Below are positions 1,313 through 42,694 of a DNA stretch of 42,694 nt, one piece after another. The position numbers were made by a program, and so were the translations under genes. The first letter of the stretch is position 1, and every line of letters begins with the position of its first letter. The stretch comes from Gammaproteobacteria bacterium. Its GTDB lineage: Bacteria > Pseudomonadota > Gammaproteobacteria > QZLD01. The notes beneath the pieces were generated by a model. It saw only the letters and a program-made list of their open reading frames with translations, searched no databases and had not been told where the DNA came from. The stretch spans positions 1 through 42,694 of the forward strand of contig QZLD01000028.1 of NCBI GenBank assembly GCA_004796385.1, given 5' to 3'.

Positions 1313-1469
1313 TATCTTTCCTTCGCAACCTTTCTTCTGTAATACCATCGTGTTATATTCGGATGGCATTATAACTAATTAACAGAAATAAATATAAATT
1401 AAGCAGGCTTTTATTAAGAGTCTATATAATTTCAAGCTACCGTGTCATAACAATATCAGGGAGAAAATC

Positions 1470-4400
1470 ATGCTAAGGAAATTAGTTTTAGCCTTTTGTA
1501 TTATCACGACTTTTACCTCTATATCCAGTGCCGGAATTGTGGCCGATCATACTGCTGTAGAGCAGTTTGACCAGATTCCGGATTACTATATTAATGAGGT
1601 TAAAAAGATGTGGTTATCGGTTCCGGGTCAATCTCATAGTAGAGGATATCGCTGGGGTATAGAGTTGCTGGCAGCTCAGGACCCACGCTTTGCAGCGGTA
1701 GTTACCGAAGCAGGTGAGCCGGAGCTACCGACAACAGATCATCTGCGTATGTCGAATCTCTTCAGAACACCTGAAGGTGGTTGGGGTGGTACTGCCGGTG
1801 AGGAGATGTTCTGGACTACTCAGGGCGCAGTTGATTATATGAATAATCACCTTACCTATAGTAATAGTGTCGCTAATCCGGTTTCTGCCTTTGGTTTTGG
1901 TTGGTGCTGGGATATGACCTGGGATTATGGTCATAGTGAGCAGATTGATGAAGTGCATGGTGTTCGTTGGTATGGTACTGCCAATACTACAAATGGCTGG
2001 GGAACAAGTCAGAATTGGTGGGGAATAGATACTGCTGATAACTTTGATGGTAATCACCCGATAACACTGCAAAATTATCTTAATGCAATTGAGTATTACA
2101 ATACCCACAATCCACAGACAGTTACATTTTATACAACCGGGCCGGTTGATGGCGGTGGCAATACCGGGGAGCGAGGCTATCAGCGTTATATAAAACATCA
2201 GGCGATAAGAAACCACGTTTATGCGGGTGAAGAGCGGGTTCTATTTGATTACGCAGATATACTTACCCACAACAGTAGCGGCGAGCAGAATTTCAGAGAG
2301 TGGGATGGGCACACCTTTCCTTTTATACATGATGACAATGCAGATACATCTTCGCACGATCATATCAGTGATGAAGGCGCAGTTAGAATTGCCAAGGCGA
2401 TGTGGTGGATGCTGGCGCGTATAGCAGGCTGGGATGGAGTAGCTGAAGATAAGGTCGCAACACCAATTGTCTCTTTACCTACAGGAGATTACGAGGACAG
2501 TGTAACCATAACTATTACCGAGCCGACAGAAGATGCAGTAATTTATTATACTCTTGATGGCAGTGAACCAACCGAAGAGTCACAGCAATATAGCGAACCG
2601 CTTCTGTTGCAACAATCAACAACTTTGAAAGCTAAGGCTTTCAAGGATGGAATTGAATCGAGCGAAACTCTTACTGCTGTCTATAACATCATTATTGATG
2701 TTACTCCGCCGCAGATATCTTCTATAGAGGCGACATCGGCAACAGAAATCGTTATTGAATTTAATGAAGGCATGAACACCGATAGCCTTGCCGTTACAGA
2801 AAATTACACAATAAATAACGGCATCTCCGTTTTATCAGCAACTCCTTTTGCCGCGCCGTTTAATGGGGTGACGCTTCAGGTTACTGATATGGTTGAAGAT
2901 ACAACCTACACTGTCATCATCAATGGCGTAAGTGATGATCATAATAATCAGATTGCAGTAAACAGCAGTGCTGAATTTACCTATACAGTGGTGCACGCTC
3001 CGGAAAGCCTGCAACAGCACTGGAGTTTTGAAACAGCAGCTGATATTCAGGTGAACGGAGCAGTTCAGGTAGAAAATGGCAGATCAGGCAAGGCGTTTTA
3101 CTTCGATGGTGATGACTATCTTATTCTTGGCAATGCAACGCACAATATCGAGCAGACAAACGCCTTCACTATAGCAACATGGATAAAATATGAAGATGCG
3201 CTTTCTGGAGATATTATCTCTCGTGGACAGTATGTATTTCCTTACCGCATGACAACATCAGGAAGTTATATGCGAAGTGTTATCAGAACCGGCAGTACCA
3301 ATTATGTTCGGGGAACTCTTCCGCTGACAGAAGGTGTCTGGAATTATGTTGTTTTAACCTATAAAGATGGTGAGCGGGCCATGTATCTTAACGGAGAAGT
3401 TGATTACACGGATGCAATCTCCGGACAGTTAAATTTCAACGGTAGCCAGGATATCTTTATAGGGCAGGGGTTTAAAGGGACAATCGATGAGATTCAGATC
3501 TATAACGAGGCACTGGCTCCTGAACAAATACAGCTTTTGTATGCAGAAGATATCCCACAGTATGTGCAGAATCCGCAATTCTCCCCAATAGCCGGAACTT
3601 ACAATTCTACTGTCAATGTTACTCTTAGCAGCGATACTGAAGATGCGCTTATCTACTACACGCTGGATGGTAGCGAACCGGATCAGGAATCTACGCTTTA
3701 TACGGCTCCGTTTGCGGTCTCTGCATCTACCTCTGTAAAGGCAAAGGCGTATAAGAATGATATGGTTGCCAGTGCCACAGTTATGGCAGATTACATCATA
3801 GAGCTGGATGAGATTCCTCCGCAAATAACAGGTGTAGAGACAGTATCTGAAACAGAGCTTATCATCCGCTTTAGCGAAGAGATTGAACACAACAGTCTCA
3901 CCAATTCTGCCAACTATTCAATATCTGGGGTTTCAATAGATTTTGTTAGTGCGTATAGTGGTAGCGCAGCAATTATACATACATCCGGTTTTACAGCTAA
4001 TACTCCGTATCTGGTTGGCGTAAACAATATCGAAGATCAGGCAGGGAATACTATAGCAGCGGGAACCATTGCTGAATTTACCTATGTGACCACAGAACCA
4101 CCGCAAGGACTACAGCAATATTGGGATTTTGAAAGCAGCGACGGCATTACAGTAGTCGGAGCAACTCATGTCGATAATGGTAAATCCGGCAAGGCATTCT
4201 ATTTTGACGGAGTTGATGACAGACTGGAGTTGGGAACAGATATATATGGCATAACCGATACCAATGAATTTACCATTTCTGCCTGGATAAATTATGAGAG
4301 TTCTCTCTCAGGAAATATCATTGCCAGAGGACGTTATGTTTATCCATACTGCATGACCACATCGGGTAGTTATATGCGAAGCATTATTCGTACGGATAGA

Positions 4401-5807
4401 ACAAACTACATCAGAGGCACACTTGCACTTGCCGGCGAAGAGTGGCATCACGTTGTTCTTACCTATCGCGATGGTGAAAGGGTAATGTATGTTGATGGAG
4501 AGATCGACCATCAGAGCGAAGTCACTGGAACACTCAATGCTATCAACGATTCTCAGATAATAACGGTAGGGCAGGGGTTTCATGGTCTGATTGACGAGAT
4601 CAAAATCTACAATAGCGTGCTTACTCCGGCACAAGTTACAGAGCTCTACAACGAAAATATTATTCCACAGGTGGCAGTTCCACAGATTGATCCTGCTGCC
4701 GGAACATACAATCAGGCAATAGAGGTTATCATCAGTAGTACAACAGCAGATGCGACAATCTACTATACAACTGATGGTAGTGAACCGGGTGATAGTGCAA
4801 CCCTTTACCAGGGGGTATTCATTCTCTCTGAAAATGCAACAGTAAAGGCCATTGCCTATAAAGACGGAATGGAAACCAGCGAGATAGTTTCCGTAAGCTA
4901 TCAATTTGAAATAGATAGTACAGCTCCGCAGGTTAGTGTCGTAACAGTAAATAATGCTACCACGCTAACAGTCGAGTTTAATGAGGAACTTGATTTGACA
5001 ACAGCTCAAGACAGCACAAATTACACTATAGCATCCGGTCTTATTGTTAGTTCTGCGCGGCTGGATGCGGATGGTAAGACAGTTGTCCTGACAACCATGC
5101 CGTTGCCGGAAAATATAGAGCAAATCCTGCAAATAAGCGGAGTTGCCGATATTAATGGTAATGTCATTACAGCTCCTGTGACTGCAGCAATAACCTATGT
5201 TCCGGTTTCAGTTGATGACAGCGTTACAGGTTACTGGAGTTTTGACGCAGTAGCAGATAACGAAGTCCCTGATCTATCCGGAAATAGCAACAACGGCACA
5301 ATAAATGGCACAGAGATTATTGCAGAGGGAATGTCTGGTTCGGCAATATCATTTAATGGCGAAAACAGTGTTGATCTTGGAGTCTCACGTTTCGGAATCG
5401 AAGAGACATCCGAATACTCAATCTCAATCTGGTTCAAGCCGGAGCAGACCTTTGCCGGACATTTGATAAGAAGAGGCCCGTATGTTTACCCTTATAGAAT
5501 TTACGCCAATGCAGGTAGAGTTTCATCAACAGTCAGAACAACCGGTACAAACTACCTTCACGCAAATACATGGCCTGATGCAGAAACGTGGTATCACTGC
5601 CTTGTAACCTACAAAGACGGAGAGCATCGCATATACATAAACGGAGTTCTCGATAGTAGCGATGCAGATACAGGCGCACCAAACTTCTACGGCAACTACT
5701 CCACAATGTTGGGTGAAGGCTATAGCGGCTTGATTGATGAAGTGAAAATCTTCAATAAGTCACTCAATCAGGAGGAGGTAACGGCGGTTTACCAGCAAGT
5801 TCCATAA
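1470..5807 (+). CDS. Large secreted modular protein: signal peptide, ~300-aa N-terminal domain of unknown type, then 3 x (chitobiase/Fn3-associated-like + SbsA/Big_5-like Ig + LamG/concanavalin-like) modules
   Basis: A GGGAGA RBS precedes the start, and the signal peptide is MLRKLVLAFCIITTFTSISSA. The motif (I/L)YYT(L/T)DGSEP occurs three times. (T/I)(P/A)PQ(I/V).. Ig-like segments occur three times. LamG-like segments GKAFYFDG..IDE(I/V)(Q/K)I(Y/F)N..L also occur three times. Confidence 0.8.
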   Translation: MLRKLVLAFCIITTFTSISSAGIVADHTAVEQFDQIPDYYINEVKKMWLSVPGQSHSRGYRWGIELLAAQDPRFAAVVTEAGEPELPTTDHLRMSNLFRTPEGGWGGTAGEEMFWTTQGAVDYMNNHLTYSNSVANPVSAFGFGWCWDMTWDYGHSEQIDEVHGVRWYGTANTTNGWGTSQNWWGIDTADNFDGNHPITLQNYLNAIEYYNTHNPQTVTFYTTGPVDGGGNTGERGYQRYIKHQAIRNHVYAGEERVLFDYADILTHNSSGEQNFREWDGHTFPFIHDDNADTSSHDHISDEGAVRIAKAMWWMLARIAGWDGVAEDKVATPIVSLPTGDYEDSVTITITEPTEDAVIYYTLDGSEPTEESQQYSEPLLLQQSTTLKAKAFKDGIESSETLTAVYNIIIDVTPPQISSIEATSATEIVIEFNEGMNTDSLAVTENYTINNGISVLSATPFAAPFNGVTLQVTDMVEDTTYTVIINGVSDDHNNQIAVNSSAEFTYTVVHAPESLQQHWSFETAADIQVNGAVQVENGRSGKAFYFDGDDYLILGNATHNIEQTNAFTIATWIKYEDALSGDIISRGQYVFPYRMTTSGSYMRSVIRTGSTNYVRGTLPLTEGVWNYVVLTYKDGERAMYLNGEVDYTDAISGQLNFNGSQDIFIGQGFKGTIDEIQIYNEALAPEQIQLLYAEDIPQYVQNPQFSPIAGTYNSTVNVTLSSDTEDALIYYTLDGSEPDQESTLYTAPFAVSASTSVKAKAYKNDMVASATVMADYIIELDEIPPQITGVETVSETELIIRFSEEIEHNSLTNSANYSISGVSIDFVSAYSGSAAIIHTSGFTANTPYLVGVNNIEDQAGNTIAAGTIAEFTYVTTEPPQGLQQYWDFESSDGITVVGATHVDNGKSGKAFYFDGVDDRLELGTDIYGITDTNEFTISAWINYESSLSGNIIARGRYVYPYCMTTSGSYMRSIIRTDRTNYIRGTLALAGEEWHHVVLTYRDGERVMYVDGEIDHQSEVTGTLNAINDSQIITVGQGFHGLIDEIKIYNSVLTPAQVTELYNENIIPQVAVPQIDPAAGTYNQAIEVIISSTTADATIYYTTDGSEPGDSATLYQGVFILSENATVKAIAYKDGMETSEIVSVSYQFEIDSTAPQVSVVTVNNATTLTVEFNEELDLTTAQDSTNYTIASGLIVSSARLDADGKTVVLTTMPLPENIEQILQISGVADINGNVITAPVTAAITYVPVSVDDSVTGYWSFDAVADNEVPDLSGNSNNGTINGTEIIAEGMSGSAISFNGENSVDLGVSRFGIEETSEYSISIWFKPEQTFAGHLIRRGPYVYPYRIYANAGRVSSTVRTTGTNYLHANTWPDAETWYHCLVTYKDGEHRIYINGVLDSSDADTGAPNFYGNYSTMLGEGYSGLIDEVKIFNKSLNQEEVTAVYQQVP
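2454..5804 (+). repeat. Three tandem ~1.1-kb intragenic module repeats (approx 2454..3560, 3561..4670, 4671..5804)
   Basis: The unit boundaries align at aa ~329, ~698 and ~1068 (..VATPIVSLPTGDY / IPQYVQNPQFSPIAGTY / IPQVAVPQIDPAAGTY). Units 1 and 2 are clearly closer to each other than to unit 3 (RGQYVFPYRMTTSGSYMRSVIRTGSTNYVRGTL vs RGRYVYPYCMTTSGSYMRSIIRTDRTNYIRGTL). Confidence 0.8.
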
Positions 5808-24221: not shown

Positions 24222-26048
24222 TTAGTACTCGTTTACATTTAATTCGCCAGAAATGAATTTTTCATCTAGGTCGTGTGAATTCAGTGGTTTACTGAAAAAG
24301 TATCCCTGTACTGTATTGCAGCCCATATCTCTTAATTGCCAGAATGTTTCTTCGGTTTCAACACCTTCAGCAACTATTTCCAGTCCAAGGTTGTGCCCCA
24401 TTTCAATAGTGGCATGAACAATCATCAGGTCGTCTTTATCTTCCAGCATATCCATTACAAAGGATTTGTCTATTTTCAATTCATCAAGAGGCAACTGTTT
24501 AAGATAAGTCAGAGATGAATAGCCGGTTCCGAAATCATCAACAGAAATTTTTACCCCTTTTTCATCCAGAGATTTAAGTATTTCGCTGGCTGCAGATTTT
24601 TCAATCATCATTGCTGTTTCTGTTAGTTCCAAAACTAACAGGTCATGCGGCAAACTGTAGCTTGCCAGAAGATTTATTATATAGTCGTCCAACCCTTTTT
24701 CCTGCAGGTTTAACGGAGATATATTTACACTCATTCTAAGAGGAGAGCCTCTCTCCAGAAACTCGGCGCATTTACTTAAGGCTCTGTTCAATACCCACCG
24801 GGAAAGAGGTTTTATTACTCCTGTTTGTTCTGCTAATGGAATAAATTCATCAGGAGGAATGTAGCCGTGACTTGGATGTTTCCAGCGTATGAGAGCTTCA
24901 AGACCAAGTACTCCGCCACTAAGTGTATCTATTTGCGGTTGGTAGAATAATTCCAGTTCGTCATTCTCCAGAGCATTTCGTAGCTCAGTCATTAAGGAAA
25001 GCCGACGGCTACTGTATGGGTCGATATCTGGCGCATATTCAGCGTAGTGATCAAGTGAATTAAAGGCCATTTCCATTGCTATTTGTGCATGTTGTATAAG
25101 AGTATCGTAGCAATCTCCATGTTCCGGATAGCTGGAAATCCCTACTAAGGCACCTATATCCAGCGACATTCCCTGAAATTCAAAAGGACGTTGCATTTCA
25201 TTTAGAATTTGCTCGGCAACCTTTCTTATTGGAATATTCAGTTTTTCTGCATTTATCAGCATGGCAAAACTTACCCCCTGAAGCAGAGCCAGCGATTTGT
25301 TCTCCTCAATATTTATTGAGAAGTCCAGTTTCTCTCCCATATCATTAAGTCTTACGGCTGCCTGCATTAAAAGTTTATCGCCATTTTGATATCCTAGAAC
25401 ATTGTTTATTTCATCGAAATGCTTTAAATAAATAATTAATGTATATACCGACGGGCATTCGTCAATCTCGATAATCTGAGAAAAACGATGTTGTAGCAGG
25501 AGCGAGTTGGGGAATCCTGTTCTTCTGTCATAAAGTGCAGCTTTAAGAATATCCTTTTCATAGCGGTAAACCAGGTCTGGTTTAACTACATCGTCTTTTG
25601 TGGATTCTTTCAGTTCTTCTTGTAGAAAGCTGATTTTGGCAATATTTTTAATTCTGGTAATAACATCCTCATTTATGAATGGTTTTTTAAGGAAATCGTC
25701 AATTGAATTATCTAGTCTATTTAGCAGCTTCCTATTTTTTTCATCCGGGATTGCGCTATTAAAAACAGCGACAACCAAAGGTTTTTCTGAACATATCGAA
25801 TTATTAATGTTGTATATGATTTTTTCACCGCTGATATCAGGCATATCCATATCGAGAATAATAATATCAGGGTCATAGGTGGGTATTAGGTCAGATGCTT
25901 TGTGAGGATCGTAAAGACTCAAAATGTTTTCATACCCGTTGGATGTGAGTATGTCTGAGAGAATCTCATGATTTATGGGCTGATCGTCAATAATCAGTAT
26001 TTTTCTGTTTTTATAGGCATCTTTGCCGGGCCGCATATTTTCTGCCAT
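24222..26048 (-). CDS. Response regulator: REC - degenerate GGDEF - EAL (predicted c-di-GMP phosphodiesterase)
   Basis: The REC domain shows ILIIDDQ, DIIILDMDMPDISG and LKKPF. The GGDEF-fold region has the signature replaced by QGVSF (..ALLQGVSFAMLIN). The EAL domain appears intact: ELFYQPQ, GLEALIRW, SVNISP, LELTE, ISVDDFGTGYSSL, KIDKSF, VAEGVETEE, QGYFFSKP. The ORF extends to a GTG at 26069, and the first ATG is at 26048. Confidence 0.85.
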   Translation of the reverse strand: MAENMRPGKDAYKNRKILIIDDQPINHEILSDILTSNGYENILSLYDPHKASDLIPTYDPDIIILDMDMPDISGEKIIYNINNSICSEKPLVVAVFNSAIPDEKNRKLLNRLDNSIDDFLKKPFINEDVITRIKNIAKISFLQEELKESTKDDVVKPDLVYRYEKDILKAALYDRRTGFPNSLLLQHRFSQIIEIDECPSVYTLIIYLKHFDEINNVLGYQNGDKLLMQAAVRLNDMGEKLDFSINIEENKSLALLQGVSFAMLINAEKLNIPIRKVAEQILNEMQRPFEFQGMSLDIGALVGISSYPEHGDCYDTLIQHAQIAMEMAFNSLDHYAEYAPDIDPYSSRRLSLMTELRNALENDELELFYQPQIDTLSGGVLGLEALIRWKHPSHGYIPPDEFIPLAEQTGVIKPLSRWVLNRALSKCAEFLERGSPLRMSVNISPLNLQEKGLDDYIINLLASYSLPHDLLVLELTETAMMIEKSAASEILKSLDEKGVKISVDDFGTGYSSLTYLKQLPLDELKIDKSFVMDMLEDKDDLMIVHATIEMGHNLGLEIVAEGVETEETFWQLRDMGCNTVQGYFFSKPLNSHDLDEKFISGELNVNEY

Positions 26049-26349
26049 ACCTTTGTAAATTGATAACACCTAAGCAGAGTTTAGTAAAAAACTGCAACAA
26101 TTCATGATATTTGTGTTTTTATTGGGGTATATCTTTTAGAAAAAGGTGAAAATGAGGACTATTTGACAGTTATCAGCGGTAAGGTATTCAAATTGCCATT
26201 TTGATTTGCATCAAAAAAGTTAAATACTTGAAATGTTTTTCAAAATATAGATACTGGCAGCATATTTATAAGTTTATTAGGGAGTTTTTCTGTATTTGCC
26301 AAGAAAACTTCTGCTTTACAAAGTTGCGTTATTGGAGAACATAGGGATT

Positions 26350-28313: not shown

Positions 28314-31300
28314 TTGGAGCCGATAGCTGCTATTTCCGAAGAAGTATCTGTTATTATTCAGCATAGTTCAGGTGTTGATAATAAGCTTATTAATTCAAAT
28401 ACAATTATTTCAGAACTAGAGATCGAATCAGTGGTTATGTTGCAGATTTCGTCTGAAGTAAATGAAAATTATGGGGTAAAAGTTCCTGTTAATTATTTTT
28501 TTGGTAAACATACCATAAATGATATTGCTTATCAGGTATTTAAAGCCAAAGGAAAAAGCAAAAGCGATAACAATGGCATTATGGAAAAAACGTTGGATTG
28601 CAATAATCCATTTCCTCTCAATGAAGTTCAACAGGCATTCTGGTTGGGAATGGAGGATGTTTTTCCTTTAGGTAGTATTCCTCCTCTTTTTTTTGTAGAA
28701 CTGGAAAAAAACAGTCTGAATATAGAAAAGCTGCAATATGCCTGGAATGAGTTAGTAAGGCGCCATGAGATGTTAAGGGCGGTAATTCTTTTAAGTGGTC
28801 AGCAGCAAATACTTGAAATTGTTCCTGAATACAGTTTTGATAAGATTGATTTTAGTATGATGAATCATGAAACTGCACTACAGGCAACAGAGGCAGAGAG
28901 AAAGAGCTTTATAAACCTGTCGTGTGAACCGGAAAAGTGGCCTTTGTTCAGAATTTCCGTAATAAAACTGCCAGAGGATAACTACAGAGTTTTTTTTAAA
29001 ATTGATCTGCTTATTGCCGATCTTCTTAGTTGTAGAATACTTATCCATGAATGGAGCAGCCTCTATTTTGGAAATGAGTTGGTTTTATTGCAAAAGCAGG
29101 GGCTTTTTAGAGGATATATTCTTAAAAGTATTGAGAATCAACGCAGCGAAAGATATAACAAAGCATTTGCATATTGGAAAGAAAGAATAGCAACTTTACC
29201 ATTACCTCCGCAGCTTCCTCTGGAAAAACGGCCGCAGGATCTGAAAAAACCATCTTTTAAAAGACTGTCTGGTTCAGTATCTGAGGCAAAATGGAAGTTA
29301 TTTAAACAGTTTTCTAAAGACAAAGGTGTTTCGGTATCCATGTTGGTTTGCACCTTATTCTCAAAAATAGTGGGAAGCTGGAGTAGTTCCGGTAGTTTTA
29401 CCCTCAACCTGATGTTATATCAGAGGCCTGCCATAGATGATGAAATCTACAACGTAGTTGGTGATTTTACCTCTAATTTATTGCTTCAGGTAGATGTGGA
29501 GAGCGCCGTAACCCTTATTGAAAATGCAGGAACATTACAAAATCAATTGTGGCAGGATATAGATAACAGCGAAGTTAGCGGTATAAAAGTTTTGCGTGAA
29601 ATGCACCATTTTCATGATAATAAACTCCTGACAATGCCTGTTCTTTTTTCCAGTAATTTGGGATTGGAGTCTTACGAAGAGAGAATATCGCATACCGGTA
29701 ACAGCATTTTTGGCAGACCTGTTTTTAGTGCCATGCAGTTGCCACAGGTGTGGTTAAATCATTCGATTATTGAAGAGAAAGGTGAATTAATATTTAGTTG
29801 GGACTACATAGCAGATCTTTTCCCTGAAGGTATGATAGAAGCTATGTTTAGTTGTTATTGCCGATTATTGGAGCAGGCAGTAACAACTCCGGAAATATGG
29901 GGTAGCCCATTTGATTTTTCAGAGGTATCTCCTTTAAAACAGAATTTGACTATTCCTGAGCTTAAAGAGAAACATGCAAGAAAAACATTGCAGCAAGCTA
30001 TAATAAAAAACCTTTCCGGTGAAGGAGTTGTTTTAGAAAGTAAAGATCAATTAATTACCAAGCAGGAGTTATTGTCCTCTGTTTTAGCAATAATGGAATT
30101 ATTGGATAATGATAGCGAGGCAGGGCGTATAGCCATATATTGTGAGAGCTTTAAACTGCAGGCGGCTGCGATACTGGCGACAATTCTTTCAGGAAAATCA
30201 GTTGTAGTAATTATGTCAGGTTCTCCGGCTAAAAGGATTAATCGAATAATAAGCTGCACTGACGCAGAACTTCTTATTACAGATATAAAGCTTAATGCTA
30301 TTAAATCTCCTCAGATATTTATTAGCGACATAGAGCCTTTAGTAACAAAGGATGCGGAGCAATTGGTATTATCAACAGAATCTGATCAGGAGATATTTGT
30401 GTATTGTGGAGCACTTTTTAATGAAGATCCTGAAATAATATCAATTTTCCAAAGAACACTGGAAGATAACTTTACCTTTTTGGGCGAATGTTGCGATATA
30501 GAATCAAAGCAACAACTAATATCTTTTTCAAAGAACGGGTCAGATGTTTTTGTTTACGATCTTCTTTTTGGGATCTATTTTGATAGGGCAATTATGCACA
30601 ACCCATCTGTTAGCGATGCGCATAACTCCTTGATTAAGTGTGACGATATCTACACAAACAACCTGAAATTGGTTCACTCTAAAGGTAATGAACTGATAAT
30701 TGGGGATAAAATATCTCTTAGCAGTGAACGAATTGAAAACCGATTAAGTTTGGTTGAATATGCGGTTGTTACCAATATTATCGGCACGCCCATAATAACC
30801 TCTTATGAAAAAAGAAGCGGAAGCGCAAAAGATAGAATTTTTAATGAGCAGATAAAAGCGATTACCCTTAATAATGATATGAAGCCGACTCCACCTATTG
30901 CAGTTGGCAATGTTTATTATAAAGGAGAAAACTTACCTCATTATCAAAACAGAAATCATGGCGAAATTGCAGAAGGAATGCTGTTTCCTACCAATAGAGT
31001 AGGAAGAATCTCTCATTCTGGAGAGATAACCTATGTGGTTGAAGAAAACGATATTATTCAAATTAATGGTATTCGGACAAATATTGCGGAAATCAGGGAA
31101 TTGCTTGTTGAACATCCGGCGATAGGCGATGCAGTGACCATTTACAATAGCGATGAGAATGGTCGTAATGAGCTTGTGGCATATGTATCTCCCATAATGG
31201 ATTTATCAAGAGTTCCTGTATCTATCCCCTGCACAGTGGAAAACGACTTTGGTGAAAAATACAGGACAGTAACCGTAAATATTTCTGGCAATAGTATTTC

Positions 31301-32279
31301 AATTAAAAGTGATTTGCTAACTTGGTCTATGAATCAACAGGTATGGGTAAGAATTGACCTTAAAGGCGTTAATAAAAACAAAAAACTTCCAGGATATATA
31401 AAATGGTATTCATCTGAAATAGCTAATATTTCTCTGGATATATCCAAAGAAGATTTTGCCAATATTCAAAAGGCGCTGAACAATCTTTTTCTAAGCTCTA
31501 AAGATTCTGCAGTAGGGGCTGATGATGCAGAAAACAGTTTGGAAGGAATAGATAGCAGAATAAGAGCGCCGTTTTATGAGCCTTGTCTTATTAAACTGCC
31601 AAGGCAGCGTGATCTTCTTGAAGTTAGTGCTCAGAATATCTCTAATAACGGGATAATGATTTCAGGAATAAAGGAGAGATGTATTCCTGATCAAAAGGTG
31701 AAAATCTGTCTGGTATTGCCAGAGCATGATGAAACTTTATGGGTAAATGGTTTTGTAGTTTGGCAATCAAAAGAGAACATGGGGATAAAATTTAATCTTG
31801 ATAATAGTGATTCCGCAATTATTTCTAATTCTGTAAATACTATTTTGCGTACTGAAAACAATAAATTTTCGTTATTTTCAATTTCAGATATTAAAACGTA
31901 TCTAATGGATTATTTGCCGGAAGATATTGTTCCGCAAAAGTATATACTTTTGGATGAAATTCCCAAAAACAATAGTGGAGGAGTTCAGTTTTCAGCTCTT
32001 CCCAACCCTGATTTAGGCTACTATCCAGAAGATGAAAGCGCTTATGAGCCCCCCAAAAGCGAACTTGAAAAAGAAATTATCTCCCTGTTTGAGCAAGTAT
32101 TGAATATTAAAAAAGCCGGAATGAATGATGACTTTTTTGAATGGGGAGGGGACTCATATAAAGCACTGAAATTTATAAATATGCTAAAAGAGAGAATAGG
32201 GAAAGAGGTAAAGCTGTCGCTTATATATAATGCACCTACAGCAGCAGGGTTATTTTCTGAATTATGTAAAAAAATATAA
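28314..32279 (+). CDS. NRPS-like single-module protein: carrier-like N-terminus - heterocyclization (Cy) domain - degenerate adenylation-like domain interrupted by two tandem PilZ-like domains - PCP
   Basis: Cy motifs are FPLNEVQQAFWLG (aa 100-113), DLLIADLLS (231-239; DxxxxDxxS in place of HHxxxDG; nt 29004..29030), LPLPPQLP (295-302), GDFTS (383-387) and PQVWLNH (477-483). A-like motifs are ITKQEL (581-586), ILSGKSVVVI, RINRIISCTDAELLITD, IIQINGIRTNIAEIRELL (914-931, A8-like) and IPKNNSGGVQFSAL (1216-1229, A10-like with the Lys missing). The PCP motif is FFEWGGDSYKAL, with its Ser codon at 32154..32156. The start is TTG, directly after an in-frame TAA; the first in-frame ATG is codon 42. 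Confidence 0.75.
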   Translation: MEPIAAISEEVSVIIQHSSGVDNKLINSNTIISELEIESVVMLQISSEVNENYGVKVPVNYFFGKHTINDIAYQVFKAKGKSKSDNNGIMEKTLDCNNPFPLNEVQQAFWLGMEDVFPLGSIPPLFFVELEKNSLNIEKLQYAWNELVRRHEMLRAVILLSGQQQILEIVPEYSFDKIDFSMMNHETALQATEAERKSFINLSCEPEKWPLFRISVIKLPEDNYRVFFKIDLLIADLLSCRILIHEWSSLYFGNELVLLQKQGLFRGYILKSIENQRSERYNKAFAYWKERIATLPLPPQLPLEKRPQDLKKPSFKRLSGSVSEAKWKLFKQFSKDKGVSVSMLVCTLFSKIVGSWSSSGSFTLNLMLYQRPAIDDEIYNVVGDFTSNLLLQVDVESAVTLIENAGTLQNQLWQDIDNSEVSGIKVLREMHHFHDNKLLTMPVLFSSNLGLESYEERISHTGNSIFGRPVFSAMQLPQVWLNHSIIEEKGELIFSWDYIADLFPEGMIEAMFSCYCRLLEQAVTTPEIWGSPFDFSEVSPLKQNLTIPELKEKHARKTLQQAIIKNLSGEGVVLESKDQLITKQELLSSVLAIMELLDNDSEAGRIAIYCESFKLQAAAILATILSGKSVVVIMSGSPAKRINRIISCTDAELLITDIKLNAIKSPQIFISDIEPLVTKDAEQLVLSTESDQEIFVYCGALFNEDPEIISIFQRTLEDNFTFLGECCDIESKQQLISFSKNGSDVFVYDLLFGIYFDRAIMHNPSVSDAHNSLIKCDDIYTNNLKLVHSKGNELIIGDKISLSSERIENRLSLVEYAVVTNIIGTPIITSYEKRSGSAKDRIFNEQIKAITLNNDMKPTPPIAVGNVYYKGENLPHYQNRNHGEIAEGMLFPTNRVGRISHSGEITYVVEENDIIQINGIRTNIAEIRELLVEHPAIGDAVTIYNSDENGRNELVAYVSPIMDLSRVPVSIPCTVENDFGEKYRTVTVNISGNSISIKSDLLTWSMNQQVWVRIDLKGVNKNKKLPGYIKWYSSEIANISLDISKEDFANIQKALNNLFLSSKDSAVGADDAENSLEGIDSRIRAPFYEPCLIKLPRQRDLLEVSAQNISNNGIMISGIKERCIPDQKVKICLVLPEHDETLWVNGFVVWQSKENMGIKFNLDNSDSAIISNSVNTILRTENNKFSLFSISDIKTYLMDYLPEDIVPQKYILLDEIPKNNSGGVQFSALPNPDLGYYPEDESAYEPPKSELEKEIISLFEQVLNIKKAGMNDDFFEWGGDSYKALKFINMLKERIGKEVKLSLIYNAPTAAGLFSELCKKI
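31200..31808 (+). other. Two tandem PilZ-like domains embedded in the C-terminal subdomain of the A-like domain (aa ~963-1058 and ~1079-1165)
   Basis: PilZ-like 1 reads SRVPVSIPCTVE..TVTVNISGNSISIKS..VWVRIDL..LPGYIKWYSSE..ISLDI. PilZ-like 2 reads SRIRAPFYEPCLIKL..LEVSAQNISNNGIMISG..KVKICLVLP..LWVNGFVVWQS..MGIKF. The (D/N)xSxxG motif is exact in domain 2 (NISNNG, nt 31635..31652). The RxxxR motif is degenerate in both. Confidence 0.55.
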
Positions 32280-32533: not shown

Positions 32534-33184
32534 ATGCAAATGCTTTTACCAGTTTTAGTGGGGTTGTTGACCCTTGCCGTTGGCTTTATAGCCTTGGCGA
32601 ATACCGTATCAAAAGAAAAGAGCTTATCTTGGGGAGTGTTTGCCCTTATATGTCCACCTGTTTCACTCTTTTTTGCTCCTGTTTACTGGAGTAAAGCCAG
32701 ATTAAGCTTTTTCATAATGATTATTGGAGCAGGTTTTTTAGCAGCCAGTCTTTATTTTGGTGGCTATACCGAAGTAAAAAGACATCTTGAGATAAGAGGA
32801 ATAAAAACCAATATATCTTCATATGTTCTTGGTTATGAGATTGATCCGGAAATTGATCTCGCAGAAAATACAGAAAATATTGAGCAGAATATAGTTCCTA
32901 TAGAAGAGAAAGAGCCGAAAAGTAAAGCGCAGTTATCACATAATATGACCTATTCAGAAATAACGTATAACAGAATAGATCCTGAGTCAGCCAGAGGTTA
33001 TCTGGGAAGTAAAGTGGTTATGTCATTGAGTAATGGTAAAAAGGCATCAGGTGTTTTATTAAGCAGTCAAAATGGAAAGATTACTCTTAAGATAGCCAAG
33101 GATAGTGGTCATGTTTCATATATTATTCCAATAGCAAAGATTAGAAATATGAAAGTAGAACGAGTAGTAAGAAAATCTGTTTAG
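32534..33184 (+). CDS. Hypothetical membrane protein (3-4 N-terminal TM segments plus a small C-terminal beta-rich domain)
   Basis: A GGAGG RBS region precedes the start. The hydrophobic segments are LPVLVGLLTLAVGFIALA, FALICPPVSLFFAPVYW and FFIMIIGAGFLAASLYFGG. The C-terminus is ..KVVMSLSNGKKASGVLLSSQNGKITLKIAK.. Confidence 0.5.
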   Translation: MQMLLPVLVGLLTLAVGFIALANTVSKEKSLSWGVFALICPPVSLFFAPVYWSKARLSFFIMIIGAGFLAASLYFGGYTEVKRHLEIRGIKTNISSYVLGYEIDPEIDLAENTENIEQNIVPIEEKEPKSKAQLSHNMTYSEITYNRIDPESARGYLGSKVVMSLSNGKKASGVLLSSQNGKITLKIAKDSGHVSYIIPIAKIRNMKVERVVRKSV

Positions 33185-36688: not shown

Positions 36689-37123
36689 TTACACCTCCAG
36701 ATTGTGTGTATTTAGATGATAGCCGCGGTCTTTGTAGAATTTGTATCTTTCCCTTGCCTTGGCTTTACTGGTTTCGTTGTTGGGTACTATCTCGGCGACC
36801 CGTTCATAACTGCTGAAGAAATCGGTGATCTGTTCACTGAGGTTAATCATAACTTCCGATTTTATTGCTATTGGGTTTTGATCGCTGATTACTATCGGGT
36901 TGTTCTTGTGGGTTTCTGCTGAGTTTTGTATCTCATGTGGCAAAAAGCTGCCTTGGCGAAATGTCCAGAGCATACTGTCTATGACCTGTGACTGAGCAGT
37001 TTCTGCTGTGTAGATAAAAATTTCATGACCAGCCAGATATGCCTTTTCTGTAATTTTACACGCCAGAAGTTCTTTGTCGTTCTGGCGGTTATTGCTCAGT
37101 ATGTAAAAATCTATTCTGGTCAT
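36689..37123 (-). CDS. holC: DNA polymerase III chi subunit
   Basis: The N-terminus is MTRIDFYIL. The C-terminus ..AKARERYKFYKDRGYHLNTH.. is collinear with E. coli HolC (ARERYKAYRVAGFNLNT). It is 144 aa and sits immediately downstream of pepA, as in E. coli. Confidence 0.85.
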   Translation of the reverse strand: MTRIDFYILSNNRQNDKELLACKITEKAYLAGHEIFIYTAETAQSQVIDSMLWTFRQGSFLPHEIQNSAETHKNNPIVISDQNPIAIKSEVMINLSEQITDFFSSYERVAEIVPNNETSKAKARERYKFYKDRGYHLNTHNLEV

Positions 37124-37132
37124 GGGATTGAG

Positions 37133-38683
37133 TTACTTCTCTTCTTCTGCTTTTGTTTTTTTTGTTTCCGGTACGTTTTCATTTTTTGCAGCCAGATCAC
37201 ATAGCAGTTGTACCAGTAGTGGTACGGGGCGACCGGTTGCCCCTTTGGCTTTACCGCTTTTCCATGCGGTTCCGGCAATATCTATATGTGCCCATTTCTG
37301 CTCTTTGGTGAATTCTGAGAGGAAGCAGCCGGCTGTAATGGTTCCGGCATCACGCCCGCCAACATTAGCAAGATCGGCAAAATTGCTTTTAAGTAGATCA
37401 GCATATTCTTCGTCAAGTGGTAGTTCCCAGCCTCTGTCATCTGCTTTTTCGCCTGCACTGAGTATTGAGTCTACCAGCTCTTTATCATTACCCATCACAC
37501 CATGACGATATGCCCCCAGCGCGACAATGCAGGCACCGGTTAAAGTTGCAATGTCAATAATCAGTTGAGGTTTGTATTTTGCGGAGTAGGTGAGGGCATC
37601 GCAAAGGATTAACCTGCCTTCGGCATCTGTATTGAGGATTTCGATAGTTTTTCCAGCCATGCTGGTGACGATATCGCCCGGCTTGTTTGCCTTGCCATCC
37701 GGCAGGTTTTCACTGGATGGGACAACGGCTATTACATTGATCGGTAGTTGTAGTTCGGCACAGGCTGCAATTGTGCCGATTACACTTGCACCGCCACACA
37801 TATCGTATTTCATCTCGTCCATTGCGGCTGCTGGTTTCAGAGATATACCACCGGCATCAAAGGTTAGCCCTTTGCCCACAAGAACTATAGGCGCTACCGT
37901 TTTTTTAGCACCACTGTATTTTATGGCAATAAGTCGCGCTTCTTCTTCGCTGCCTTTGGATACTGAGAGCAGTGAGCCCATTTTCAGTTTTTCCATATCC
38001 TTTTCGTCAAGTATTTCGATGGATGTTTTTGCAAGCTTTTTGACTATCTTTTTTGCCTTTTCAGCAAGATCACTTGGTGTACAGTGGTTGCCGGGCAGGT
38101 TTGCGAGATCTTTGGCTATGGTCTGTCCGTTGGCAATAGCCTGACCTATGGCAACAGCATCTTTAAATTTTGCCAGTCCACTTTTTTGCGGAACTAAAAA
38201 TGTAACTTTGCTGAGTTTTGGCTGGTCTTCTTCTTTTACATCTGTTTTGAGTTGATTAAAACTGTATGGCTGATTAGCAAGTATCTGTGTGCCTTTGCCA
38301 AGTTGCTCGCAGTAAAAATCTGTCTGGTCGGACTCTTCATCGGTTGTGACCAGCTGAATAGTAATATCTTCAAGCTTTTTGGGTGTGGCGGCTGCGGTAG
38401 TATCAAAAAATTTAATTATTTCTTTTTCTGCGAATTTTTCTTTTTTGCCACAGCCGACAATTAACAACCTTTTACAGAGAAGGTTGGTTGTATTTGGTAT
38501 AAGGAGTTTCTCACCTTTCTTTCCGGTTATGTCTCTACTTTCCAGAAGATTGGTTATCAGATTATTGCTAAGGCTGTTGATTTTTTCGATAGTTTCGTTT
38601 GTGGTTTCATCTTCAAATATGCCCAGAACCAGACAGGCTGTCTTCTGGTTCTCTGGTCTTGCTGTTTTTACTGAAAATTCCAT
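37133..38683 (-). CDS. pepA: Leucyl aminopeptidase (M17 family)
   Basis: It has the M17 signature NTDAEGRLILCDAL, plus VGKGLTFDAGGISLKP and MKYDMCGGA. It is divergent from lptF, as in enterobacteria. Confidence 0.9.
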   Translation of the reverse strand: MEFSVKTARPENQKTACLVLGIFEDETTNETIEKINSLSNNLITNLLESRDITGKKGEKLLIPNTTNLLCKRLLIVGCGKKEKFAEKEIIKFFDTTAAATPKKLEDITIQLVTTDEESDQTDFYCEQLGKGTQILANQPYSFNQLKTDVKEEDQPKLSKVTFLVPQKSGLAKFKDAVAIGQAIANGQTIAKDLANLPGNHCTPSDLAEKAKKIVKKLAKTSIEILDEKDMEKLKMGSLLSVSKGSEEEARLIAIKYSGAKKTVAPIVLVGKGLTFDAGGISLKPAAAMDEMKYDMCGGASVIGTIAACAELQLPINVIAVVPSSENLPDGKANKPGDIVTSMAGKTIEILNTDAEGRLILCDALTYSAKYKPQLIIDIATLTGACIVALGAYRHGVMGNDKELVDSILSAGEKADDRGWELPLDEEYADLLKSNFADLANVGGRDAGTITAGCFLSEFTKEQKWAHIDIAGTAWKSGKAKGATGRPVPLLVQLLCDLAAKNENVPETKKTKAEEEK

Positions 38684-38909
38684 TGCGTTACCTCTTGCTT
38701 TACTTTGAGTTTTGTGTTTCGTATCTATGCTCTTGCCTGTTGTGAACTGTATTCAATAGATCTTGCTGTTTGATTTCAGGCTGTATCCATAAGGCTTGTC
38801 TTAATGAGATGGAGCTTGCTTTTTAAAAAAATGACTATGCACCGGATTTTAGAGTAAAATGCGTTTTTTTTCATTATTAATTGTTTAGAGCTTTTAGCGG
38901 GAAGTCTGA

Positions 38910-40013
38910 GTGAAACCGAAGAAGATCGAGTTGTATATTGCAAAAGAGCTATTTTTGACGTGGTTTTCGGTCTCGTTTGTTTTGGTGGCTATTCTGCTTG
39001 TTAATCGTTTTATTAAGTTTCTTTCGCAGGCGGCAAATGGTGAGTTACCTGCAGATTTAGTTGCCGTTCTTCTTGCTTATAAAGCTATTGAATATTTTCC
39101 TTTGTTGCTGCCGTTTACGTTATTCATAGGGGCAATGCTGACCCTGGGTAGGTTAGGGCGTGATAACGAGATGACGGTAATGCTGTCATGTGGTATTGGT
39201 CCATCTGTATTGTACAGGGCGATTTCTTTTGTCGTAGTACCGTTGTTTGCCTTGGTTTTTTATCTGTCTGTGTATTTGTCTCCTTGGGCTGTTGGTGCTG
39301 GTACAGCTATTTCAGAAAATAGCAAAGTGAGCAATGATATCAGTGCAATAGAGGTGGGGCGGTTTACTAAGGGGGATAGCGGCAAAGAGGCATTCTATGC
39401 ACAGGAGAGGGATGCTGAAAATGATAATTTGAAGGATGTGTTTTTGCGTCACGGAAGAGATGGTCAAACAGTTGTGGTTTTGGCAGATAGTGCCAGCTAT
39501 GAAGAGAAGCATGATTCGCGTTATATGGTATTTCGCAAAGGTTATCGCTATGAAGGAATTATTGGTGAAAAACAGTGGAATATTACCAGCTTTGGAGTGC
39601 ATGGAGTAGATGCAGGTAAAGAGAAAAAAACTACTGTTGCCTCAGAATATAAGGCTAAGGAGATTGCAGAGCTATATAGCTCAAAAAGCAAAAGGGATAT
39701 TGCCGAGTTTCATTGGCGTTTGGCAATGCCGCTTATGCTGCTGCTTCTGGCATTTTCCGTTCTGCCTTTGGGTAAGGTTTCGCCCAGAGAGGGACGTTTT
39801 GGTAGGTTATTTGCGGCAATTCTTATCTATTTTGCATATCTTAAACTGTTAACTCTGGGGCGAGGGCTTATAGAGAAAGGTAGTATTCCTTCGTTTGCAG
39901 GGTTGTGGTGGGTGCATATTATCTTTATCGTTTTTGCAGTTTTTCTTTATTGGCGTACTTTTGGATTTGGAGAGACGGGGGGTAGAAAAGTTGGCAAAAG
40001 GAAATCTGCATGA
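38910..40013 (+). CDS. lptF: LPS export ABC transporter permease LptF
   Basis: It has a GTG start. By eye it is collinear with E. coli LptF (..G.LP...V..LL......Y...LLP..LF.G..L.LGRL..D.E..VM..CG). It overlaps lptG by 4 nt (ATGA). Confidence 0.85.
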   Translation: MKPKKIELYIAKELFLTWFSVSFVLVAILLVNRFIKFLSQAANGELPADLVAVLLAYKAIEYFPLLLPFTLFIGAMLTLGRLGRDNEMTVMLSCGIGPSVLYRAISFVVVPLFALVFYLSVYLSPWAVGAGTAISENSKVSNDISAIEVGRFTKGDSGKEAFYAQERDAENDNLKDVFLRHGRDGQTVVVLADSASYEEKHDSRYMVFRKGYRYEGIIGEKQWNITSFGVHGVDAGKEKKTTVASEYKAKEIAELYSSKSKRDIAEFHWRLAMPLMLLLLAFSVLPLGKVSPREGRFGRLFAAILIYFAYLKLLTLGRGLIEKGSIPSFAGLWWVHIIFIVFAVFLYWRTFGFGETGGRKVGKRKSA

Positions 40014-41074
40014 GAATTATTGACAGATATATCGCTGTTACAGTTGCCTGTTATGTTATTGCAGCGCTTTTTGTATTGGTGATATTGCAGATGGCATTTG
40101 GCTTTCTGGATGAAATGGGAGATGTCGGTAAAGGCAGCTATACAGCAGGAAAGGCAGCATATTATATAGCTATGACAACGCCAAACAGAGTTTATGAGAT
40201 GTTTCCTCTGGCAGCGCTTATTGGTAGCCTTTTAGGTTTGGGGGCAATGGCAGGAAGCAGCGAACTGACGATAATACGGGCATCCGGAGTATCTGTTTAC
40301 AGGATTGTATTTTCTGTTATCAAAATCGGAATTATTTTATCTGCGCTTACTTTCACTATAGGCGAGTGGTTATCTCCACCAATAAATAGTTTTGCCAGAA
40401 GCTATAGGGCGGATGCAATTTCAGAGAGGCTTTCAGTTACGGTTAACGGATCTTTTTGGCTGAAAGATGGTGATAGGGTTGTCAGTGTCAGGCAGGCAAT
40501 ATCCAAAGATGTACTTGCAGATATTGTTATTTATAGATATTCAAATGATAGGCAGTTACAGGCAATAATCTCAGCACCAAAGGCGCAGCATAGCGAGAGT
40601 GGTTGGGTTTTAGCTGATGCCGCAATTACCAGGTTTAACAGCAACGGGGTAACAGTTGATAAGGGGCAAGATTATATCTGGCATGGTGGTTTTCAGCCGG
40701 AAAATATTGAGGTTGTCAGTTCCAGACCGGACTATCTCTCTCTGAAAAAACTCTGGGAATATATCGGGTATCAGCAGAAAAACGGATTGGAATCTGCCAA
40801 ATATGAGTTGGCATTCTGGAATAAGCTGGCATCACCTTTTTCAACAATGGTGATGCTTATTATTTCTATTCCGTTTGTCTTTGGTTCGCTGCGATCCGTT
40901 GGGACAGGGCAAAGGTTGATGCTGGGTATAGTTCTTGGTATCGGCTACTTCCTGATTAGCCGCATACTTTCAACCAGTGGCGTGGTCTATGAGCTTAACC
41001 CTGTCTTTTGTGCCTTTTTTCCGCTGATGCTGTTTCTGTTTCCGGGGTTGTTTGCTATTTACAGGGTTGAGTAG
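40010..41074 (+). CDS. lptG: LPS export ABC transporter permease LptG
   Basis: The N-terminus is MRIIDRYI. It has YjgP/YjgQ family topology (3 TM segments, a periplasmic beta-jellyroll, 3 TM segments), and shows the lptF-lptG pairing. Confidence 0.85.
   Translation: MRIIDRYIAVTVACYVIAALFVLVILQMAFGFLDEMGDVGKGSYTAGKAAYYIAMTTPNRVYEMFPLAALIGSLLGLGAMAGSSELTIIRASGVSVYRIVFSVIKIGIILSALTFTIGEWLSPPINSFARSYRADAISERLSVTVNGSFWLKDGDRVVSVRQAISKDVLADIVIYRYSNDRQLQAIISAPKAQHSESGWVLADAAITRFNSNGVTVDKGQDYIWHGGFQPENIEVVSSRPDYLSLKKLWEYIGYQQKNGLESAKYELAFWNKLASPFSTMVMLIISIPFVFGSLRSVGTGQRLMLGIVLGIGYFLISRILSTSGVVYELNPVFCAFFPLMLFLFPGLFAIYRVE
40968..41074 (+). repeat. Direct repeat copy A (the functional 3' end of lptG)
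   Basis: The sequence is tttcaaccagtggcgtggtctatgagcttaaccctgtcttttgtgccttttttccgctgatgctgtttctgtttccggggttgtttgctatttacagggttgagtag. Confidence 0.85.
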
Positions 41075-42105: not shown

Positions 42106-42694
42106 ATGATTAATATTTCGGACTTTTTGGTAGATAAAGTGATTTATCAATCACACAATACTGTTGTTTACCAAGGTAAAAGGCTTAGTGATAATGTTGC
42201 CGTTGTTATAAAAGCTTTAAATAACGAATACCCTGATAACTATCTTATTGAGCATTTTGAAAACGAGTATCAGCTACTTAAAGAGTTGGATTTTGATGGA
42301 ATTCCTCGTATATATTCTCTGGAAAAGTGCCAGAATGGTCTTGCCATTATTATGGAAGATTTCAATGGTGTTTCATTAAAGGATCTGCTTGGTTACTCAA
42401 AAACAGATATAAAAGAATTTCTCGATATTGCGATCCGGATAGTCGATGTCCTTGATTTTATACATAGTAAAAATATTATTCATAAAGACCTCAACTCTTC
42501 AAATATTTTGTTGAATAGGGAAGAGGGAGTTATAAAGGTAATAGATTTTGGCATCTCCGCAAAAATCTCGTCGGTAAAAGAGAGTCAGATAAACACTCGA
42601 TTAGACGGAACTTTGCCGTATATCTCTCCGGAACAGACCGGCAGAATGAATAAGTCTCTGGATTACCGAACAGATTTTTACTCTCTTGGGATTA
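42106..42694 (+). CDS. Ser/Thr protein kinase domain, N-terminal part of a gene that continues beyond the window
   Basis: From the ATG at 42106 the frame is open to the window end. The kinase motifs are VAVVIKAL (the VAIK-type Lys), HKDLNSSNILL (catalytic loop), VIDFGIS (DFG) and TLPYISPEQ (APE-like). This N-terminal kinase type commonly heads very large multidomain sensor proteins. Confidence 0.75.
   Translation, partial: MINISDFLVDKVIYQSHNTVVYQGKRLSDNVAVVIKALNNEYPDNYLIEHFENEYQLLKELDFDGIPRIYSLEKCQNGLAIIMEDFNGVSLKDLLGYSKTDIKEFLDIAIRIVDVLDFIHSKNIIHKDLNSSNILLNREEGVIKVIDFGISAKISSVKESQINTRLDGTLPYISPEQTGRMNKSLDYRTDFYSLGI

Follow-up and report, generated by a model that had tools for sequence, protein, structure and literature searches.

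The window analysed here is the whole 42,694-nucleotide stretch of contig QZLD01000028.1, from the assembly GCA_004796385.1 of a gammaproteobacterium of the QZLD01 lineage. On its forward strand it carries a gene whose product reads as a module of a nonribosomal peptide synthetase (NRPS), in which two PilZ domains are embedded within a degenerate adenylation (A) domain. The gene is a single open frame of 3966 nt (28314..32279, +; 1321 codons) with a TTG start codon and an AGGA 8 nt 5' of the start. Pfam and motif mapping resolve the protein into a carrier, a heterocyclization-type (Cy) condensation domain, the degenerate A domain with a PilZ-PilZ pair between its a8 and a9 motifs, and a second carrier. 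In a Pfam scan of the 1321-residue protein, Condensation (PF00668, 131 bits), PP-binding (62 bits over two stretches) and PilZ (52 bits, E 9e-14, again over two stretches; cut-off 22.5) scored above their cut-offs, and the AMP-binding families fell below theirs. An earlier reading of the DNA, made from the letters without database searches and called here the sequence-only reading, had described a Cy-A-PCP module, the PCP being a peptidyl carrier protein. Alignment and Pfam uphold this module type, but the N-terminal carrier had been overlooked and the A-like domain is sub-threshold. The motifs that had been quoted were all found in the positions given for them.

The overlooked N-terminal carrier (28332..28550, +; aa 7-79) resembles an acyl carrier protein (ACP): it scores 31 bits against PP-binding when scanned alone, and the NCBIfam acyl carrier protein models match the same residues. 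At the other end of the protein, the terminal PCP already recognised from sequence (32046..32267, +; aa 1245-1318) was recovered with 40.6 bits against PP-binding alone. Both predicted carriers retain the phosphopantetheine serine, Ser39 in EIES (ELEIES-V; nt 28428..28430) and Ser1281 in GGDS (nt 32154..32156).

Scanned singly, each PilZ unit reaches about 30 bits (E ∼6e-7) against PF07238, with 30.1 bits for unit 1 (31206..31493, +; aa 965-1060), whose limits also follow from the family alignment, and 29.9 bits for unit 2 (31563..31853, +; aa 1084-1180). An AlphaFold model of aa 900-1250, with a mean predicted local distance difference test score (pLDDT) of 72.9, folds into two beta-barrels with a helix after each. 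The inter-barrel linker between them (31494..31562, +; aa 1061-1083), delimited also by alignment with relatives, is of low confidence (pLDDT <50). The best matches of this model in the PDB are two-barrel receptors of cyclic di-GMP (c-di-GMP), namely PlzA, MotI/DgrA, VCA0042, MrkH and YcgR, followed by the single PilZ domains of BcsA, Alg44 and MapZ. Because the Pfam scores of the units, the barrel model and the PDB matches agree, the PilZ assignment is not a chance resemblance, and the proposal of two PilZ-type barrels within the C-terminal subdomain of the A-like domain (hereafter Asub) is confirmed. Neither Pfam nor fold comparison matched the insert to a catalytic family, both identifying it as PilZ-PilZ. 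An oxidase (Ox), methyltransferase (MT) or ketoreductase (KR) insert was considered as well and ruled out, as no such family is found at aa 961-1186, yet these families are readily recognised in the relatives that bear such inserts.

Aligned with four ordinary Cy-A-PCP synthetases, the window protein has a surplus of about 225 residues (961-1186) between LVAYVSP, at the end of the a8 region, and LPEDIVP, a remnant of a9 that stands for LPxYMxP. Since this a9 remnant lies 3' of the insert, the insertion site lies between a8 and a9 and not, as first thought, between a8 and a10. The suggestion that the insert occupies the hot-spot of tailoring inserts among the late A motifs otherwise stands, as an Ox or MT insert is found in the identical gap, from the a7-a8 block to a9, in 16 of 16 close relatives checked. 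A strand of the form L(V/A/I)(A/G)(Y/F)xxx precedes the insert in all a8-a9 interrupted A domains (PMC8341866), and the LVAYVSP boundary of the window protein fits this motif. On the two sides of the insert, alignments place the N-terminal part of Asub (30999..31193, +; aa 896-960), which holds the a7 and a8 remnants, ends in LVAYVSP and matches positions 2-35 of AMP-binding_C (PF13193) with 16.8 bits (cut-off 24.5), and the a9-a10 remnant (31872..32003, +; aa 1187-1230).

The architecture recurs well beyond this contig. An exhaustive phmmer search with aa 955-1190 against 1.84 billion representative sequences (E up to 1e-3) yielded 38 other proteins matched by the insert alone (E 4e-16 to 5e-4), most of them of 1000-4000 residues. 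An exhaustive search was needed here, as word-index searches, both with the insert plus its flanks and with the family alignment, returned almost nothing and are uninformative on absence. According to domain-segment probing, at least 35 of the 38 are NRPS or polyketide synthase (PKS)-NRPS modules in which the A and/or PCP segments flanking PilZ match on both sides. They run from the A core through the first half of Asub to one, two or three PilZ units, and on to a9-a10 and the PCP, with PilZ sitting between positions 1-36 and 43-76 of AMP-binding_C. Pfam scans of 14 relatives gave C-A(PilZ-PilZ)-PCP-TE (TE, thioesterase), A(PilZ)-PCP-reductase, multi-module NRPSs and one KS-AT-C-A(PilZ-PilZ)-PCP-TE hybrid. 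In most of the scanned PilZ-carrying relatives AMP-binding scores 240-320 bits, and the majority of the relatives have intact A motifs. Free-standing PilZ proteins are far commoner, yet none could be demonstrated among the 38 matches, and the embedded PilZ units therefore form a group of their own. The tandem of the window protein is collinear with the other tandems at 23-28% identity, an alignment that points to an interrupted domain which was inherited rather than freshly inserted.

Canonical c-di-GMP binding by PilZ requires an RxxxR before the barrel and a [D/N]xSxxG inside it, PilZ domains without these motifs being non-binding, and in xPilZ-PilZ receptors the ligand is bound at the inter-domain linker (bioRxiv 10.1101/814665). 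The motif layout of the relatives is that of these receptors. Within the group, [D/N]xSxxG occurs in about 52 of 60 PilZ units, and in 13 of 18 tandems the second unit has an RxxxR ahead of it, in seven cases as the full RRxxxR, typically as DLRRxxxRVP. First or single units mostly retain just the last Arg of RxxxR.

Members of the group that carry a name come from Microcoleus sp. AT9_B5, Microcoleus FACHB-831, Oscillatoria princeps RMCB-10 and a gammaproteobacterial metagenome-assembled genome, and are annotated solely as 'amino acid adenylation domain-containing protein'. The O. princeps member serves as termination module in an NRPS cluster of several genes, which includes a phosphopantetheinyl transferase (PPTase). 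Among the group as a whole, termination or initiation modules were encountered many times. A second lineage, consisting of P0150 (L017 8096..9715) and P0153, has a weakened or truncated A domain (AMP-binding 26 and 110 bits), the a10 Lys of P0150 being a Ser, and retains Asub-PilZ-PilZ-PCP, followed by a thioesterase. P0150 comes after a 2339-residue protein without a Pfam match, and a split gene is possible there. In two NRPSs of the Microcoleus type, P0122 (aa 693-1137) and P0124 (aa 1946-2361), a cassette made up of the LVAY strand, PilZ, a9 and a10 is tandemly duplicated, such that a9-a10 occurs twice. This duplication resembles the 'A8-M-A9-A10-M-A9' spacer arrangement of methyltransferase inserts in FrsG.

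As a whole, the window protein is a singleton. Beyond near-identical copies its best match reaches about 31% identity, over the Cy part only; PilZ is absent from its best 120 whole-protein matches; and a scan of genome contigs with the whole protein found ordinary Cy-A-PCP synthetases only, at 25-29% identity. We found no paper on PilZ within an NRPS, an adenylation domain or an interrupted A domain in a literature coverage that was incomplete, so that 'undescribed' is to be read here as not found. A survey of PilZ proteins describes many architectures, with no synthetase among them (bioRxiv 10.1101/814665). The remark of the sequence-only reading that a second-messenger receptor at this hinge is an unfamiliar architecture is upheld as far as papers go, but the window protein does not stand alone: PilZ lies between a8 and a9 in at least 35 database clusters, mostly in an intact A domain. 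The family is populated, but, as far as we found, not characterised.

In the window protein, the domain that hosts the insert has decayed. The A core (29991..30998, +; aa 560-895), outlined by alignment, scores 14.6 bits against AMP-binding (PF00501; cut-off 29.9) in the whole-protein scan, TIGR01733 gives 40.8 bits (cut-off 317), and none of the regular expressions for A-domain motifs matched in the protein. Alignment shows the a3 P-loop YTSGSTGxPKG replaced by LSTESDQEIFVYCGALFNEDPEI and about 28 residues lost beyond a4. The a5 motif GATEAS has become VVTNII and the a7 motif YRTGD has become FPTNR, with loss of the a5 Glu and the a7 Asp; a8, GRxDxQVKIxGxRIELGEIE in its usual form, reads VEENDIIQINGIRTNIAEIR; and a10, NGKVDR, reads SGGVQF, with Gly at the catalytic Lys. 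When the window protein is compared with four ordinary Cy-A-PCP relatives, and these four among themselves, identity is 20% versus 63% in the A core, 36% versus 56% in Cy and 29% versus 40% in the C-terminal PCP. Judged by these figures, the decay is domain-specific and concentrated in A, and reads as a selective loss of adenylation chemistry. The A-like domain is still collinear with ordinary A domains in the alignment. A model of aa 545-1321 matches the A-PCP structures of LgrA, EntF and DhbF and the interrupted TioS at E ∼1e-26, a match that, since real A domains supplied the guiding alignment of the model, speaks of fold compatibility and is not proof; the residues around the deletion (aa 767-845) have a pLDDT <50. 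Adenylation by the window protein is not to be expected from these replacements, and no catalytic cycle of the A subdomain would therefore be left for a ligand to gate.

The Cy domain (28605..29903, +; aa 98-530) had been described as well conserved, which is in part the case. Besides its Condensation score, it matches solved Cy domains with 248 bits (HMWP2/Irp2 Cy1) and 228 bits (BmdB Cy2 and EpoB Cy), it has an intact DxxxxD in place of HHxxxDG (DLLIAD, aa 231-236), and the equivalent of EpoB N335 is retained as N365. However, the motif PQVWLNH, quoted earlier as a sign of conservation, carries an Asn at the position of the catalytic Asp of cyclodehydration. This residue, Asn482 (nt 29757..29759), aligns with D384 of chain 5t3e, which we took as BmdB D1226 from its 30-residue spacing to T354, and also with the Asp of EpoB and Irp2; its equivalents are BmdB D1226, EpoB D449 and PchE D480. 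The Gln that follows the cyclodehydration Asp is replaced by Ser484, and the equivalent of BmdB T1196 is Ser446. In PchE, the D480A exchange nearly abolishes cyclization (PMC8807600). From these residues, heterocyclization by the window Cy domain is doubtful, and condensation may survive.

The ligand motifs of the PilZ pair are reduced as well. Unit 1 has MDLSR at the RxxxR position, with one Arg only (R966), and its second motif is NISGNS, the Gly being replaced by Ser. Unit 2 has IDSRIR where the relatives have RRxxxR, and the exact NxSxxG motif noticed in it by the sequence-only reading, NISNNG (aa 1108-1113, nt 31635..31652), is indeed intact. The linker between the barrels is acidic (GADDAENSLEGIDS), compared with DLRRxxxR in the relatives; as set out in the motif analysis, the acidic sequence between the two units is GADDAENSLEGID. 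One of the four c-di-GMP motif elements of the pair is thus intact, and canonical c-di-GMP binding by this insert is unlikely on that count. The insert had been thought to be positioned for coupling c-di-GMP to the movements of the A subdomain and PCP; with the A motifs lost, RxxxR absent from both units and the linker acidic, this could not be sustained for the window protein.

The surroundings of the gene are non-biosynthetic. Two genes upstream (24222..26069, -) lies a REC-GGDEF-EAL gene whose product has no GG[DE]EF and keeps EALIR, DDFGTG and QGYFF intact, probably a response-regulator c-di-GMP phosphodiesterase. The other neighbours encode a DUF1207 protein and MiaA (miaA) and, beyond the NRPS-like gene, a 216-residue membrane protein and a secreted protein with three Ig-like domains; further neighbours are an inositol-monophosphatase-like gene, holC, pepA, lptF and lptG. 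The gene of the 216-residue protein (32534..33184, +) is directly downstream and adjoins the NRPS-like gene in all contigs; its product has no Pfam match and, by eye, shows N-terminal hydrophobic membrane-like segments and a Lys-rich C-terminal tail resembling beta-strands. Within 36689..41074, pepA and holC are divergent from lptF-lptG, as in E. coli, and the best PDB matches of PepA are gammaproteobacterial PepA proteins; both features suggest that the host, with a G+C content of about 38%, is a gammaproteobacterium. At the end of the window (∼42106..42694, +, and on into L009 17466..20942) begins the gene of a 1695-residue Ser/Thr-kinase - AAA_16 - GAF - GGDEF protein, a second c-di-GMP-related gene less than 10 kb from the NRPS-like gene. 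Elsewhere, 1470..5807 (+) encodes 1445 residues with three CHB_HEX_C_1/Fn3_assoc, three Laminin_G_3 and one Big_5 domains, probably a large adhesin-like protein that is secreted or sits at the cell surface. In agreement with the sequence-only reading, neighbour annotation found no TE, reductase or partner NRPS or PKS gene in the 42.7-kb window, the sole candidate being a distant alpha/beta hydrolase (476..1369) that lies 27 kb off. No Rfam family or tRNA turned up when the window was scanned for them, and its promoter and terminator scan gave nothing above chance.

A Shine-Dalgarno-like site and promoter-like hexamers precede the start of the NRPS-like gene. The G+C content is 35-37%, that of the gene being equal to that of its neighbours, and a recent acquisition was rejected because the composition does not differ from the surroundings. 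At least seven other contigs, from three sample sets, carry the gene together with its neighbours (99.8-100% nucleotide identity); the sample sets include plastic-borne biofilms of a hypersaline lagoon (PRJEB15404). With ragged differences at contig ends left out as assembly noise, these contigs show four synonymous and two non-synonymous single-nucleotide polymorphisms (SNPs) in the gene, which lean towards constraint. Five contigs from four samples (L010, L011, L012, L013 and L018) start or stop in the decayed A core, at window positions 30432..30781 (gene nt 2119-2468). Two of these ends, the end of L018 and the start of L011, come from one sample, ERZ1644699, and both deviate from the window, L018 in its last ∼30 nt and L011 in its first ∼60 nt. 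Assembly noise at low coverage or a segment that varies between strains would account for this.

Taken together, we favour with moderate confidence the explanation that the window protein is a non-adenylating descendant of a PilZ-interrupted module, which has been kept as a trans-loaded or scaffolding protein. Its ancestor would have been an NRPS module with a tandem PilZ already lodged between a8 and a9 of its A domain. In the intact relatives the first barrel comes straight after the LVAY strand, the linker bears RRxxxR and the second barrel [D/N]xSxxG, which is the layout of YcgR, PlzA and MotI, and there c-di-GMP or a PilZ partner would most likely act on the mobile A subdomain beside the PCP. 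For these family members one may speculate that the two barrels close up once c-di-GMP is bound at the linker, in the manner of YcgR-type proteins. As the insert is anchored at both ends in Asub, next to the PCP, such a closure would alter the alternation of Asub between adenylation and thiolation, or the presentation of the PCP. In the window protein itself, the carriers may be loaded in trans, if at all, with the Cy domain only condensing, or else the protein may serve as a scaffold or adaptor, with PilZ barrels that engage other proteins instead of binding c-di-GMP canonically. The reading frame, both carrier serines, the DxxxxD and the PilZ folds are all retained, and a frame that has stayed open over this length, with decay limited to certain domains, speaks for a protein still in use.

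Several points weigh against this explanation. The 42.7 kb show neither an A domain that could act in trans nor a PPTase or release enzyme, which leaves trans-loading without a visible partner. The Asn-for-Asp and Ser-for-Thr exchanges in Cy look conservative and some activity is possible; likewise, R1082 and R1084 (RIR) at the RxxxR position leave room, together with the intact NISNNG, for a non-canonical binding of nucleotides. The AlphaFold models are based on shallow alignments (11 and 21 rows), purifying selection is deduced from six SNPs only, and no ortholog more diverged than 99.8% identity was found.

A broader proposal, which we put forward tentatively, concerns the relatives: they may represent an undescribed class of NRPSs in which c-di-GMP binds a YcgR-like pair of barrels in the mobile A subdomain and acts as a post-translational switch of loading or release, the window protein being a derived carrier or scaffold of this class.

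It is also conceivable, though we think it rather unlikely, that the PilZ barrels of the window protein, and perhaps those of the single-PilZ relatives without RxxxR, are docking modules independent of c-di-GMP, tethering the synthetase or carrier to a protein or a site in the cell. A Xanthomonas PilZ protein, to which this role may be likened, reportedly binds FimX and PilB. The retention of just the last Arg of RxxxR by most single inserts would fit with docking, as would the P0150/P0153 lineage, which has likewise kept Asub-PilZ-PilZ-PCP next to a weakened A domain, and motif-less domains related to PilZ do act via protein contacts (bioRxiv 10.1101/814665). However, [D/N]xSxxG is almost universal in the family, which favours ligand binding.

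The main alternative, to which we give only a small chance, is that the gene is a non-functional relic, the remains of an NRPS in decay in which no stop codon or frameshift has happened to arise so far. In favour of a relic are the damage to catalytic or ligand residues in A, Cy and PilZ alike, the absence of partner biosynthetic genes nearby, and the finding of nothing closer than about 30% in 1.8 billion representatives. Against this, the decay is confined to particular domains rather than uniform, and a frame of 1321 codons in AT-rich DNA would not be expected to persist for long enough to erase every A motif. The carrier serines and DxxxxD have been kept and both PilZ barrels score well, the start is preceded by the ribosome-binding and promoter-like signals described above, and the SNPs lean synonymous, four versus two.

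The model of the sequence-only reading, an active stand-alone Cy-A-PCP whose A-subdomain and PCP movement is gated by c-di-GMP on the PilZ pair, can draw on genuine PilZ folds with an intact NISNNG, on an insert in the mobile subdomain and on the REC-GGDEF-EAL and kinase-GAF-GGDEF genes on either side, but we consider it very improbable, given the lost P-loop, a5 Glu, a7 Asp and a10 Lys of an A domain below the Pfam cut-off, the missing RxxxR of both units with their acidic linker, the Asn at the catalytic Asp of Cy, and a neighbouring GGDEF that is degenerate in an otherwise housekeeping neighbourhood.

To our knowledge, NRPSs are controlled almost only at the level of transcription, and we know of interrupted A domains only as hosts for tailoring enzymes. 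The finding that a receptor-type domain recurs at this hinge-side site, in cyanobacterial and proteobacterial synthetases and in many copies with canonical c-di-GMP motifs, would, if the proposed switch is real, be the first sign of a second messenger acting directly on an NRPS domain, and would offer a natural template for engineered synthetases that can be switched by a ligand. The degenerate state of the window protein lowers its value as a c-di-GMP-gated enzyme, yet it exposes a recurrent and apparently unstudied NRPS architecture, and the PilZ-interrupted family is a more interesting lead than the window protein itself. The survival of the Asub-PilZ-PilZ-PCP part after the loss of adenylation suggests a separate role for it.

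Set beside known systems, the window protein is built like an a8-a9 interrupted A domain and lacks both the catalytic insert and every catalytic feature of A. As in the A8-M-A9 domain of TioS (PDB 5WMM; Lundy et al. 2020, PMC8341866), which is among the fold matches, a foreign domain follows the L(V/A/I)(A/G)(Y/F)xxx strand and precedes a9, and back-to-back double inserts are known too. Unlike the catalytic tailoring domains found there, the insert of the window protein is a non-catalytic, receptor-type pair of barrels, and its host A domain is predicted to be inactive; the inserts treated in the 2020 survey of interrupted A domains are all methyltransferases (PMC8341866). The nearest relatives in sequence are the Cy-A(Ox)-PCP and Cy-A(MT)-PCP modules of the EpoB/BmdB type. 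These share the module order and insertion site, whereas the window protein has PilZ in place of Ox or MT, an Asn at the cyclodehydration Asp, lost A motifs and an additional ACP-like carrier at its N-terminus.

Modules with an inactive A domain or none, which are loaded in trans, reportedly include BlmIII NRPS-0 of bleomycin and the A-less Cy modules of yersiniabactin HMWP1. They resemble the window protein in being Cy-containing modules whose own A domain cannot load the PCP, but are served by an A domain nearby in their cluster, where the window shows no partner, and have no PilZ. The PilZ pair itself is closest in structure to YcgR, PlzA, MotI/DgrA, VCA0042/PlzD and MrkH, whose RRxxxR linker and second-barrel [D/N]xSxxG are also found in the relatives of the insert. 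However, these receptors are free-standing, whereas the pair of the window protein is spliced into an enzyme domain and lacks the linker arginines, and in its relatives the first barrel keeps a DxSxxG-like motif. BcsA and Alg44, the PilZ domains of which are also among the fold matches, likewise have PilZ covalently joined to a synthase. They differ from the window protein and its relatives in being polysaccharide synthases with a terminal PilZ, not one placed inside a domain of the ANL superfamily, and are a precedent for the direct control of a biosynthetic enzyme by c-di-GMP.

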